Made by a program: the position numbers and the translations under genes. Below, in pieces: positions 7,809 through 22,406 of a stretch of DNA of 64,000 bases (the stretch's first letter is position 1; every line of letters starts with the position of its first letter). Origin of the DNA: a bacterium. GTDB lineage: Bacteria; Electryoneota; Electryoneia; Electryoneales; Electryoneaceae. The notes under the pieces were generated by a model that had not been told where the DNA came from, searched no databases, and saw nothing but the letters and a program-made list of their open reading frames with translations. Location of the stretch: contig OY769902.1 in assembly GCA_963669175.1 (NCBI GenBank), forward strand, positions 3,072,001-3,136,000, in the 5' to 3' direction.

Positions 7809-7880
7809 GAGTTTGTAGGTATGCAAGTTTGAAGGTTACAAAGTAGGAAGGTTATTAAGCTGTAAAGTTATAAAGTTATT
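7809..7880 (+). repeat. Nine degenerate 8-mers, consensus A(A/G)GTTNNN
   Basis: gagtttgt aggtatgc aagtttga aggttaca aagtagga aggttatt aagctgta aagttata aagttatt in strict 8-nt phase. Confidence 0.7.
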
Positions 7881-7886
7881 GGTTTT

Positions 7887-7921
7887 ATCCTTGATATCCT
7901 TTTATCCTATTATCCTGTGAG
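7887..7921 (-). repeat. Orphan right arm of the AGGAT repeat family
   Basis: Reverse complement matches 21164-21198 at 34 of 35 positions. Confidence 0.85.
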
Positions 7922-20098: not shown

Positions 20099-21161
20099 GT
20101 TCAATACTGAGCTGCTCCTGTTCGTGCTGGAAAAATGCATCGTCGCCGGGTTCATCTTCGTGGTTGTGCTTGGTGTGGTGGCGTATGCAACCCTCGGTGA
20201 ACGCAAGATCGCGGGCTGGTTCCAGGATCGTCATGGACCGAACCGTGCGGGGCCCTGGGGACTGTTGCAGCCGATTGCTGACGGTATCAAGTTCTTCATG
20301 AAAGAAGACTTTATTCCGGATCATGCACATAAAACATTGTTCATCATAGCGCCGACTTTCACCTTTATGGGCGCCGGTTTCCTGATGGCAGTCATCCCGT
20401 TCGGCGACCGGATGATGATCTTCGGACGCGATGTGATGCTGCAGATCGCTGACATCCATATCGGTATCCTGTACATTCTCGCTATCAGTGGCATGAGCGT
20501 GTACGGTCTTACCATCGGTGGCTGGGCGTCGAACAACAAATATTCTCTTATGGGTGGCGTTCGTGCCATCAGCCAGGTGATTTCCTATGAAATCCCGGTT
20601 GGTCTGGCATTGATCGCGCTTCTGATGGACCAGGGAACAACGTCCCTGCGTGAGATGGTGTTGAACCAGGGCGGTGGCATCTGGCACTGGAATGTGTTCA
20701 GTCAACCGTTGGGCTTCATCATTTTCTACGTGGCGTCGTTTGCTGAAGCGGGACGTATTCCGTTCGACCTGCCGGAAGCTGAAAACGAGCTGGTTGGCGG
20801 GTATCACACAGAATACTCGTCCATGAAATTCGGTCTTTTCCAGTTCGGTGAATATACCCATATGACCTTGGCCAGCGGCATTATCGCCACCCTGTATTTC
20901 GGCGGCTGGCAGATCCCGTTTGTCACGCCTCCGGCGGACCCGGGCATCATCTGGGGCCTCCTGACCTTTGCCGTATTCTGGATTAAAGCCTGTTTCTTCA
21001 TCTTTGTTTTCATGTGGGTACGCTGGACTATCCCGCGCTTCCGATATGATCAACTGATGCGGGTAGGGTGGAAGTCCTTGATTCCTTTTGGTATCCTGAA
21101 CATCGTCCTTACAGCTGTCCTGTTGCTCGTCGCGCAGCACCTCGGCTGGGCTGGGCAGTAA
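20091..21161 (+). CDS. nuoH: NADH-quinone oxidoreductase subunit H
   Basis: GPNRAGPWGLLQPIADG.K, PFDLPEAENELVGGYHTEYS. Confidence 0.97.
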   Translation: MIEFNTELLLFVLEKCIVAGFIFVVVLGVVAYATLGERKIAGWFQDRHGPNRAGPWGLLQPIADGIKFFMKEDFIPDHAHKTLFIIAPTFTFMGAGFLMAVIPFGDRMMIFGRDVMLQIADIHIGILYILAISGMSVYGLTIGGWASNNKYSLMGGVRAISQVISYEIPVGLALIALLMDQGTTSLREMVLNQGGGIWHWNVFSQPLGFIIFYVASFAEAGRIPFDLPEAENELVGGYHTEYSSMKFGLFQFGEYTHMTLASGIIATLYFGGWQIPFVTPPADPGIIWGLLTFAVFWIKACFFIFVFMWVRWTIPRFRYDQLMRVGWKSLIPFGILNIVLTAVLLLVAQHLGWAGQ

Positions 21162-21163
21162 GT

Positions 21164-21644
21164 CTCACAGGATATTAGGATAAAAGGATATCAAGGATGA
21201 AAAACTAATGGAAAAGAAAAGCTTTGTTAATGAAGAACTGACAAAGAAAATTATTGGTATATGTTATAAAGTACAAAATGAGCTTGGTGCAGGATTTTTG
21301 GAAAGTGTGTACCATAATGCTCTTCTAATAGCTTTGCGAGATGAAGGTTTTTCAGTTGAAAGTGAAAAACGATTAAAAGTGCATTTTCATGGTAAAGAAG
21401 TAGGAACGTTTTTCGCTGATATTGTTGTTGAAGGGAAAGTTTTAATTGAGTTGAAAGCAGTTGAAGAATTGAAAAGTGATCATAAAGCCCAAGTAGTTAA
21501 CTATCTGAAAGCGTCATCAATAGAAACAGGTTTACTTGTTAATTTTGGAAAGCAGAGAGTTCAGATTAGCAGGTTGTATAAACCAGAAAAGCAAAGTAGT
21601 TAAGTTTTTATCCTTAACATCTTTGTATCCTAATATCCTGTGAG
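21164..21644 (+). mobile_element. Putative inserted cassette: AGGAT inverted arms (21164-21206, 21603-21644) enclosing a GxxExxY gene
   Basis: First 19 bp of the arms perfectly inverted, the rest nearly so; AT-rich interior; interrupts nuoH-nuoI. Confidence 0.75.
21208..21603 (+). CDS. GxxExxY protein (PD-(D/E)xK nuclease superfamily)
   Basis: GFLESVY, ADIVVEGKVLIELK, AQVVNYL, GLLVNFG; 131 aa; about one-third GC in lines counted. Confidence 0.92.
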   Translation: MEKKSFVNEELTKKIIGICYKVQNELGAGFLESVYHNALLIALRDEGFSVESEKRLKVHFHGKEVGTFFADIVVEGKVLIELKAVEELKSDHKAQVVNYLKASSIETGLLVNFGKQRVQISRLYKPEKQSS

Positions 21645-21696
21645 TCCCGTTGCATCCTGTTGATAGATGAGGATGTGGTTAGAGGAGGAAAGAGTA

Positions 21697-22224
21697 GTGC
21701 AGGACAACACACAAGATCGTTACCGCAAATACGACTTGACGCTGATGGAGAAGCTGTACATCCCGGCGATCATGAAGGGTATGGGTGTCACACTTTCCCA
21801 CTTCTTCAAGTGCGGATTCGGATTCGGTCCGGGCACAGTCACCGTACAGTACCCGGAACAGAAGCTTCCAATCAGCCATCGTTGGCGTGGACGTCATACC
21901 CTGAAGCGTGACGAGTTCGGCCGTGAACGCTGCGTTGGCTGCCAGATGTGTGAGCTGGCCTGCCCTGCGGACGCCATTACGATCCAGGCGGGCGAGGTTC
22001 CCCCGGAACGGCGGCATCTGCACCCGACGGAACGTTATGCGATTACCTACGAGATCGACATGCTGCGCTGCATTTACTGCGGCGACTGTGAAGAAGCCTG
22101 CCCGGAAGCGGCCATCTTCATGACTCCGTTCTACGAATTTGTAGCGGACAGCAGGGATAAACTGATCTATACCAAGGAAATGCTGACCGAGAAAGAAGGC
22201 GGTCCGATTTTCTACAAAGACTGA
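21697..22224 (+). CDS. nuoI: NADH-quinone oxidoreductase subunit I
   Basis: CVGCQMCELACP, CIYCGDCEEACP; GGAGG RBS before GTG 21697. Confidence 0.95.
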   Translation: MQDNTQDRYRKYDLTLMEKLYIPAIMKGMGVTLSHFFKCGFGFGPGTVTVQYPEQKLPISHRWRGRHTLKRDEFGRERCVGCQMCELACPADAITIQAGEVPPERRHLHPTERYAITYEIDMLRCIYCGDCEEACPEAAIFMTPFYEFVADSRDKLIYTKEMLTEKEGGPIFYKD

Positions 22225-22233
22225 TTGATTGCT

Positions 22234-22361
22234 TAACAGGATGCAAGGATAAAAGGATATAAAAGATAAGAATAATTCGTTGCTATTATAAAAGTTAGCA
22301 TGTTTTTACGGAAAAGAAAGAGGTTTTATCCTTATCATCCTATCATCCTAATATCCTGTTA
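22234..22361. repeat. Empty AGGAT-arm cassette between nuoI and nuoJ
   Basis: Left arm 22234-22271 and inverted right arm 22324-22361 around ~52 AT-rich nt. Confidence 0.8.
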
Positions 22362-22406
22362 GAAAACTTGTTGTTGAAACGAAAAACCACATACGTGGGA
22401 TCTGCG

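Follow-up and report, generated by a model that had tools for sequence, protein, structure and literature searches.

The window considered here, a stretch of 64,000 nucleotides from a bacterium of the family Electryoneaceae (assembly GCA_963669175.1, contig OY769902.1, positions 3,072,001 to 3,136,000), contains a small cassette that separates nuoH from nuoI in the complex I (nuo) operon. The genome of the window (G000) is assembled as one contig of 5.45 Mb with a GC content of 0.50. The cassette has a total length of 481 bp and consists of a gene for a GxxExxY protein, a putative nuclease of the PD-(D/E)xK superfamily, which is enclosed by two inverted arms built of tandem AGGAT units (Table 1). 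A first-pass annotation, made from the letters of the window, had described a nuclease gene held in a long inverted repeat between nuoH and nuoI, and every element of this description was found again in the sequence. The cassette is a long-resident member of a widespread class, in which a small gene is framed by inverted arrays of short tandem units.

Anatomy of the nuoH-nuoI Junction

The left arm begins two bases past the TAA stop of nuoH (21159-21161), and its four AGGAT units (21169-73, 21177-81, 21185-89, and 21194-98) follow each other at a spacing of 8, 8, and 9 nt. The right arm overlaps the final base of the TAA stop of the enclosed gene; when compared to the left arm, its reverse complement is identical in the first 19 nt and differs thereafter by 4 substitutions and one 1-nt gap. 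A repeat search delimited the arms as 21164-21208 and 21600-21644 (45 nt, 84% complementary, with 391 nt between them), and the inverted-repeat score lies far above that of 100 composition-preserving shuffles of the upstream flank (z = 20.5). The GC content of the insert is 0.31-0.35, compared to 0.50-0.57 in nuoH and 0.53-0.62 in nuoI, and the sole Shine-Dalgarno (SD)-like site for the GxxExxY gene, AAGGA at 21193-21197, is located inside the left arm. Both features, the low-GC gene between GC-rich nuo flanks and the lone ribosome-binding-site-like AAGGA in the arm, had been part of the first description and were measured as stated there. Equally, no transposase was detected inside the cassette, in agreement with the transposase-free unit that had been proposed, and no Rfam family matched in the window at 21100-22400 or at the genome locus C1:12000-24500. 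In two samples, DNA contigs span the insert and both junctions with 0 differences, and the insert is therefore not an assembly artefact; apparent "joints" in these contigs are cross-matches to other arm copies.

Table 1. Features of the cassette, its neighbors, and related repeat elements in the window.
Feature	Position	Strand	Basis or remark
nuoH, 356 aa	20091..21161	+	NCBIfam NuoH equivalogs, best E 1.3e-107; Pfam NADHdh
Left arm, 43 nt, CTCAC-AGGAT-ATT-AGGAT-AAA-AGGAT-ATCA-AGGAT-GAAAAACT	21164..21206	+	nhmmer arm-family member, 48 bits
GxxExxY PD-(D/E)xK gene (putative nuclease), 131 aa	21208..21603	+	TIGR04256 and PF13366 profile matches
Right arm, four ATCCT units, then GTGAG	21603..21644	-	Inverted copy of left arm; nhmmer, 45 bits
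Extra outlying unit, ATCCTGTT (reverse complement of AACAGGAT)	21654..21661	-	9 nt past right arm
nuoI	21697..22224	+	NCBIfam NuoI; likely start GTG 21697
Gene-less AGGAT hairpin element, 130 bp, nuoI-nuoJ junction	22233..22362	.	Arms pair in RNA fold
Mosaic element, AAGTT-family array and one ATCCT arm ending in GTGAG	7826..7921	-	Between glyA (serine hydroxymethyltransferase, SHMT) and an rnfC-like gene

ACAGGAT units like the outlying one beyond the right arm occur in the flanks of many arms. The open frame of nuoI extends back to an ATG at 21667, and when translation is taken to begin at 21697, homologues align as of the first residue; this start is preceded by an SD of its own, GAGGAGGA, at 21682-21689. 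At the nuoI-nuoJ junction of G001, a genome of the same genus, at least 8 tandem arm units of 51 nt were observed, which reach the end of the contig.

The GxxExxY Protein

The product of the enclosed gene matches TIGR04256 over profile positions 1-115 of 116 (142.4 bits, E 7.6e-42, cut-off 35) and PF13366, or PDDEXK_3, with 139.1 bits (E 1.1e-40, cut-off 22). The motif G29..E32..Y35, as well as D71 and E81-L82-K83, are all intact in the window protein; among 42 aligned homologues, G29, E32, Y35, E81, L82, and K83 are invariant, and D71 is conserved in at least 90%. We take the residues of the G-x-x-E-x-x-Y and D...E-x-K motifs to be the catalytic residues of a PD-(D/E)xK fold. The GxxExxY/PF13366 family is very large, with 3375 clusters matching the window protein at E <= 1e-10, and a profile search of the complete genome identified the cassette gene as the single GxxExxY gene of G000. 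Sequence and profile searches of the PDB returned no usable relative (best E 0.27, to OppF), and a structure-atlas search with the homologue P0009 returned only the GxxExxY family. The family is mentioned in passing in one published work, and a table in another gives its function as unknown (PMC3424549).

Array Framing of GxxExxY Genes in Relatives and Other Phyla

In the published work on GxxExxY, PDDEXK_3, PF13366, or TIGR04256 (supplements aside), no account of flanking arrays was found, nor was a description of a hairpin-framed GxxExxY cassette found in the literature. Framing by inverted arrays, which the first-pass annotation had expected to be general for GxxExxY genes, is widespread. 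TIGR04256 was matched in 25 of 41 genomes (G000 and 40 relatives) with 1-12 matches each. For a first sample, 49 loci were taken from relatives, and the best inverted repeat formed by the two 130-nt flanks was scored against a null of mismatched upstream and downstream flanks, and exceeded the 99th percentile of this null in 28 loci. Eleven further loci have recognizable unit arrays at lower scores, and most of the remaining ones are truncated genes with a wrong end coordinate. The arms in relatives consist of 3-4 tandem units of 7-10 nt, and the sequence of the unit varies by locus (CACAGAG, CACGAAG, CACGGAT, CACAGAT, CGCAAAG, CACGAAA, AGCAGAT, AAGCTAT, and others), while most arms end outward in (T/A)CAC.

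A second, independent sample comprised 80 loci of the closest homologues, 74 of them with enough flank, which belong, according to the record titles, to Chloroflexota, Acidobacteriota, Planctomycetota, Verrucomicrobiota, Nitrospirota, Geobacteraceae, Spirochaetota, Bacteroidota, Chlamydiota, Pseudomonadota, and one metagenome-assembled genome of Methanosarcinales. In 54 of the 74 loci, spread over many phyla, the inverted repeat was reached by none of 100 shuffles. GGAT arrays upstream together with ATCC arrays downstream, i.e., the polarity found in the window, are present in 34 loci, the reverse in 7, and neither in 14. Moreover, in 29 of 30 GxxExxY loci the gene has a lower GC content than its flanks. 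Low GC is thus a trait of the family and not a sign of recent transfer.

Two neighborhoods in relatives involve DNA methylation genes: in G025 (L009), the GxxExxY gene is located between a type I methylase gene and the gene for its specificity subunit, and in G012 (L007) it adjoins an N6_N4 DNA methylase gene.

Arm Sequence and Protein Lineage

For 40 of the 44 family members in the protein tree (inverted-repeat score of at least 12), the similarity of the arms could be compared with that of the proteins. Arm similarity rises with protein identity (Spearman 0.31, reached by 0 of 999 permutations): it is 0.17 for copies from the same genome with proteins less than 45% identical (n = 24), and 0.37 for copies from different genomes with proteins at least 55% identical (n = 47). 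The arm sequence hence follows the lineage of the protein, and not the host genome.

The same picture emerges from the abundance of arrays. The AGGAT pattern has 191 matches in G000, 110 in G001, 22 in G002, 37 in G003, and 22 in G012, compared to 0-2 in 20 other genomes, and these five are the genomes with AGGAT-type arms on the nuoH-nuoI cassette. CGGAT arrays are abundant (9-39 matches) in G005, G019, G024, G029, G033, G036, and G038; clear CGGAT-armed GxxExxY genes are found in G005, G019, G024, G033, and G038, and genes with the related CGCAGAT or CACAGAT units in G029 and G036. Kin inherit gene and arms together, and the pattern therefore shows co-inheritance rather than recognition.

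The AGGAT Arm Family in the Genome

A profile of the arms, built from 62 seed matches, recovers 131 copies in G000 (nhmmer, E <= 0.01), about equally distributed between both strands; a three-unit AGGAT pattern accounts for the 191 matches mentioned above, and its reversed control for 0. The arms are not the cassette's own; its pair belongs to a family of about 131 copies that extends over the genome. According to a crude prediction of genes (3630 genes, 86% coding), 119 of the 131 arms are intergenic, with 80 in tandem, 30 in convergent, and 9 in divergent gaps. From the lengths of the gaps, about 67, 24, and 29 would be expected, i.e., arms are deficient in divergent gaps. The suggestion that arms are sited just after stop codons holds as well: 56 arms abut a gene end (an open frame of at least 100 codons that ends -12 to +40 nt from the outer end of the arm), compared to 19.5 +/- 4.1 for random intergenic positions (maximum 33 in 200 draws).

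A convergent partner within 6 kb was found for 30 arms, and 20 of these pairs measure 129-240 bp; 71 arms are unpaired. In most pairs, the arms surround a short, non-coding stretch of unrelated DNA. Only the arms are common to the 20 short pairs, and their interiors, which often contain arrays of other units, are AT-rich and, as judged by eye, mutually unrelated. Arms terminate in one of two ways, (TGA)CTCACAGGAT or GCTTAACAGGAT; most short pairs have one of each, and the cassette has two of the first type. The mosaic element of the window (7826-7921) indicates that many "solo" AGGAT arms may pair with arrays of another family. No gene relic was detected in the 700 nt inward of the other arms; of 786 frames, only the two covering the cassette matched. 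Arms were also considered as leaders of genes, but an inward open reading frame (ORF) of at least 60 aa is present at only 27 of the 131 arms, and looks spurious in most cases (judged without a comparison with Pfam). No transposase-encoding insertion sequence that could be a parent element was found between arms in G000.

Other readings of the arms were considered and rejected. Oppositely oriented arm pairs of 1.9-4 kb contain ordinary host genes between separate elements. The ACAGGAUG units resemble the CsrA consensus; no CsrA gene was found in G000, and other array families lack GGA. A RAYT, i.e., a transposase associated with repetitive extragenic palindromes (REP), was considered as partner of the arms; the ten Y1_Tnp (IS200/RAYT-type) genes of G000 have ordinary palindromes beside them, and never AGGAT arrays.

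Some observations concern single arm sites. Four tandem paralogues of about 750 aa with a type IX secretion system (T9SS) C-terminal sorting domain (G000:C1:14712-22752, L169) each have one AGGAT arm about 55 nt past the stop, which implies that some "solo" arms spread by segmental duplication. At G000:C1:1686390-1688588, a 353-aa ORF is located between three tandem left arms, spaced by about 168 nt, and one right arm; the ORF looks IS110-like by sequence alone, and may be an insertion sequence that landed in repeats. A dispersed repeat with the recurring spurious ORF "LFFSAISDTCPTS..." is often located near AGGAT arms (G000:C1:556058, 1134961, 1279449, and 2334094).

Further array families with at least three units at a period of 8-10 nt are present in G000, i.e., AAGTT (77 arrays), GTAAA (40), and CGCAAAG (37), of which the CGCAAAG arrays terminate in TCAC, as the AGGAT arms do. 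Arrays also accompany the three genes for four-helix-bundle proteins (TIGR02436, S23p-like) at G000:C1:896665-897182, 899112-899432, and 5095682-5096002: inverted GTAAA arrays enclose one, which has an in-frame TGA, inverted AATTAAGA arrays enclose another, and the remaining one has similar TTTTTTCAC arrays on both sides in direct orientation.

History of the nuoH-nuoI Site

The junction was compared among 16 family genomes and 2 outgroups. Within the family, six genomes have the gene, one has a relic, four or five have gene-less arrays, and four are empty. The gene is intact in G000, G001, G002, G006, and G012, and has an in-frame stop in G003. The 109-nt junction of G007 (L042) retains a relic of 24 residues (profile positions 50-73, E 7e-7), which is followed by a remnant ATCCTGT unit. 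Gene-less hairpins of other units occupy the junction in G005 (ACGGAT), G013 and G014 (AAGTCGTA), and G015 (three tandem CACGAAT hairpins), and G011 has a possible partial array; the junction of G021 measures 327 nt and contains other repeats. Empty sites in relatives, as expected for an intervening cassette, were encountered in 5 of the 18 genomes, with junctions of 30-93 nt (G004, G008, G009, G010, and G016).

A tree was calculated from 44 family members, after removal of five truncated rows of less than 100 aa and with X used to read through L028. In this tree, all six copies from nuoH-nuoI group in a single clade (support 91/73; 88% of bootstrap trees; as clustered in 0 of 500 label shuffles), which identifies the cassette as an old, fast-evolving resident, and not as a recent jump. 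Within the clade, the copies of G002 and G012, which belong to one genus, are sisters (96/84), and the copy of G001 branches first, although G001 is of the same genus as G000; a pairing of G000 with G001 is not rejected by the approximately unbiased (AU) test (p 0.093). The GxxExxY proteins of G000 and G001 are 42% identical with a non-synonymous divergence (dN) of 0.48, compared to 93% identity for NuoI and 89% for NuoH with dN of 0.04-0.07. The synonymous divergence (dS) of nuoH and nuoI is about 1.05 and that of the cassette is saturated, so that dS is uninformative as an orthology clock for the two copies. The tree of NuoH and NuoI leaves the genera unresolved, and thereby allows one ancient gain with later losses without showing it. 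Taken together, the gene appears to be mostly inherited vertically at nuoH-nuoI, an outcome that the first-pass annotation had named beforehand as contrary to its mobile reading.

A different explanation would be a minimal autonomous transposon of 481 bp, in which the nuclease would act as "transposase", gene-less pairs would be deletion derivatives moved in trans like miniature inverted-repeat transposable elements (MITEs), and the copy at nuoH-nuoI would be recent. Terminal inverted repeats that snugly enclose a single gene are what such an element should have, and the convergent gene-less pairs (30, of which 20 measure 129-240 bp), the drop of GC in the insert, and the patchy occupancy of the junction among relatives fit as well. 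However, the longest direct match at the ends of 26 pairs is 2-5 nt, the same as in a mismatched-end control, so that target-site duplications are not above background; the short pairs resemble neither one another nor the gene in their interiors; and low GC is found in 29 of 30 family members, vertically inherited ones included. A recent arrival of the cassette is further contradicted by the single clade of the six copies, with the G000-G001 pairing not rejected, and by a 10.5-kb syntenic stretch, in which 4 of 4 arm sites of G000 are occupied in G001 too, with differing copy numbers. Since the protein also lacks a strand-transfer domain, a transposon of this kind appears improbable.

Alternatively, the gene could behave like a homing endonuclease, i.e., the nuclease would cut gene-less hairpins, and the gene would be copied in by repair via the homologous arms. 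The spectrum of states at nuoH-nuoI, from intact gene to pseudogene (G003), relic (G007), gene-less arrays, and empty sites, resembles what homing would leave behind, and gene-bearing and gene-less copies do have arms in common. Nevertheless, only 1 of 30 pairs in the complete genome contains the gene and no relic is found in the others, the copies at nuoH-nuoI are monophyletic and old, and where this junction contains gene-less arrays (G005, G013, G014, and G015), their units are of other types. Homing is accordingly given little weight here.

One of the syntenic sites hints at flipping by recombination between arms: at junction 4, which alone was aligned closely (L075:8670-8850 in G000, L088:9987-10175 in G001), the arms are nearly identical and the flanks about 77% identical, while the interior aligns better when inverted (score 32 vs. 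12.5), with the inner arrays swapped end for end.

A second conserved site of the gene, between mutS and a CMD/Rrf2 gene, was observed in G005 (L015), G013 (L016), and G014 (L019), and a truncated GxxExxY copy with the CMD neighbor alone confirmed in G011 (L018). The genera of these four genomes lack the cassette at nuoH-nuoI.

Orientation and Predicted Expression

The orientation of GxxExxY genes relative to their neighbors was determined for 32 loci with long flanks, where a Pfam match retained 57 of 113 candidate ORFs nearby and no neighbor was confirmed at three loci. Among the confirmed genes, the nearest one upstream shares the strand of the GxxExxY gene in 27 of 27 loci, the nearest one downstream in 23 of 24, and both do so in 21 of 22; the loci are not independent, as they include six of nuoH-nuoI and four of mutS-CMD (three with mutS upstream, one with CMD downstream only). 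At the window locus, no promoter-like site was found ahead of the GxxExxY gene and no terminator-like site; the sole promoter-like match (21238-21265) is located inside the ORF and is within the expectation from shuffles. RNA folding predicts pairing of the two arms, in the minimum free energy (MFE) as well as in the centroid structure, and a stem that includes AAGGA and reaches the start codon. The model therefore agrees with the earlier proposal that pairing would hide the ribosome-binding site, and extends it to the start codon. G000 has a gene for RNase III (237.5 bits).

These features could also be accounted for at the level of RNA, with the nuclease gene as a mere passenger: the arrays might be hairpins that are tolerated by or useful to the host, such as REP-like stabilizers of mRNA or RNase III sites in 3' UTRs and between cistrons, the stem would control expression of the gene, and the nuclease would leave the arrays alone and have an unrelated job, e.g., in repair or defense. 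The sense orientation of the genes (27 of 27 loci), pairing of the arms in the predicted RNA fold of both the cassette and the nuoI-nuoJ hairpin, and the location of arms after gene ends with avoidance of divergent, promoter-bearing gaps would all be expected. So would the array families without any GxxExxY partner and the same framing around the unrelated four-helix-bundle genes in G000, and RNase III processes rRNA intervening sequences, as described in the relevant part of a study on Coxiella (PMC4990558). On the other hand, the arms track the lineage of the protein across phyla and not the host, which is hard to explain for RNA signals of the host, and their about equal distribution on both strands is expected of DNA palindromes. 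For a role in defense, moreover, there is no convincing match in PADLOC (best E 0.0081), and PHROGs contain no matching family. Overall, a passenger gene in an RNA-level element seems rather unlikely, and still deserves to be taken seriously.

A Putative Cognate Pair of Nuclease and Repeat

To our knowledge, neither the function of the GxxExxY family nor the role of short tandem-unit arrays has been explained, and the origin of intervening sequences (IVSs) in 23S rRNA has lacked an explanation for decades. The explanation favored here for the cassette, to which we assign an even chance, is that of a cognate pair of nuclease and repeat, built in analogy to an IVS. As the layout suggests, the GxxExxY gene would be transcribed by read-through of the nuo operon, and in the transcript the arms would close an RNA stem of about 43 bp that hides SD and start codon. 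As in rRNA IVSs, this stem is a plausible substrate for RNase III. It would hold expression of the nuclease low, and could serve to cut the operon mRNA at this position, with nuoI keeping its own SD. By analogy to RAYT-REPIN and Ssn-NTS (see below), the nuclease might recognize its cognate arrays as hairpin, cruciform, or single-stranded DNA, and might thereby maintain or spread the array family, or serve a task at the level of the host. At nuoH-nuoI, vertical inheritance of the fast-evolving pair would date back to a time before the family divided into its genera.

Several points weigh against such a cognate pair. The action of the nuclease on the arms is proposed by analogy, and the fold and active site are putatively assigned from the Pfam family and the conserved residues. 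Co-variation of gene and arms can arise from co-inheritance alone, as many of the compared pairs are kin. Array families exist without a partner, as the AAGTT, GTAAA, and CGCAAAG families have no cognate GxxExxY gene in G000, and as no GxxExxY gene was found in G015 (86% complete), in spite of the CACGAAT hairpins at its nuoH-nuoI junction. The location of the gene in the loop is not universal either, since the arms are reversed, or the gene is located between two whole hairpins, in 7 of the 74 multi-phylum loci, and in L005, L007, L010, L061, L064, and L067. Finally, a nuclease of 131 aa cannot perform strand transfer on its own, and the arms at orthologous sites of G000 and G001 argue for little recent movement.

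A broader proposal, which is tentative and leans slightly toward doubt, is that GxxExxY nucleases are dedicated partners of tandem-unit hairpin repeats across bacteria, where each lineage would read its own unit of 8-9 nt (AGGAT, CACGGAT, CACAGAG, CGCAAAG, and others) in a long-lived, vertically transmitted symbiosis, and that ORF-carrying 23S rRNA IVSs are the rRNA-borne members of this class. Linking GxxExxY proteins, intergenic tandem-unit arrays, and 23S IVSs would provide all three with one common explanation that can be tested. If the protein reads its arrays specifically, its family would be a new one among nucleases specific for a sequence or structure, and each lineage would have its natural set of targets; if processing of the stems occurs in mRNA, such sites would be where many operons, here that of complex I, are cut or tuned.

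Comparison with Known Systems

The comparison with known systems draws, for the latter, on selected parts of the published accounts. MITEs and mosaic repeats, such as bacterial interspersed mosaic elements (BIMEs) or Correia-type elements, are short intergenic elements bounded by inverted repeats, like the AGGAT pairs, and mosaics of several repeat types occur here as well (window 7826-7921). In contrast to them, AGGAT pairs have neither target duplications (26 pairs) nor a common interior sequence, and a parent insertion sequence with a transposase was not found between the arms.

In REPIN-RAYT systems, a single-copy, vertically inherited gene is located between inverted copies of a repeat, which is present in tens to hundreds of copies in intergenic DNA, often as inverted doublets; there are no target duplications, and the lineage of the gene matches the type of repeat. 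All of these properties recur in the cassette and its arm family. The differences concern the protein, which is assigned to PD-(D/E)xK instead of Y1 HUH, and the repeat, as the arms are tandem arrays of an 8-9-nt unit and not one imperfect palindrome, and the interiors of the doublets in G000 are mutually unrelated. Moreover, the ten Y1_Tnp genes of G000 itself are flanked by palindromes other than AGGAT arrays.

The Ssn-NTS/SRM system involves a GIY-YIG nuclease specific for single-stranded DNA (ssDNA), for which cleavage of ssDNA and an effect on transformation were demonstrated by experiment (Chenal et al., 2025; PMC11893778). According to the parts of this report that deal with the motif, homologues of ssnA are flanked on both sides by their own hairpin motif in 42% of cases, and 81% of the genomes with more than 200 motifs have the gene, the motif being dispersed in hundreds of copies (PMC11893778). 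While Ssn activity is experimental, an action of GxxExxY proteins on arrays is suggested by analogy; the cassette protein is assigned to another superfamily, PD-(D/E)xK, and its motif is an array of repeated units rather than a single hairpin. Common to both are a small (in the cassette, putative) nuclease gene flanked on both sides by a motif that is scattered over the genome, and a motif abundance that goes with the presence of the gene (22-191 vs. 0-2 matches for AGGAT, and likewise for CGGAT).

A structural parallel is found in the IVSs in 23S rRNA of Coxiella burnetii and Leptospira. The IVS of C. burnetii has a terminal stem of 28 bp with three tandem GACAGAT heptamers before the ORF for S23p, and the experiments presented for it place the RNase III cleavage within this stem (PMC4990558). 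The cassette differs from IVSs by its location between two protein-coding cistrons instead of an rRNA helix, by its cargo, a putative PD-(D/E)xK nuclease instead of S23p, and by its arms, which belong to a dispersed family of more than 100 copies; excision by RNase III is established for the IVS and predicted, by analogy, as processing for the cassette. In both cases, however, and as far as the consulted descriptions of IVSs extend, terminal inverted repeats pair into a long stem around an ORF of about 120-130 aa, the arm contains short tandem units, the SD is located in the stem, and the whole unit of about 430-480 nt is inserted in sense orientation within the host transcript. In line with this parallel, the four-helix-bundle genes of G000 are framed by arrays as well.

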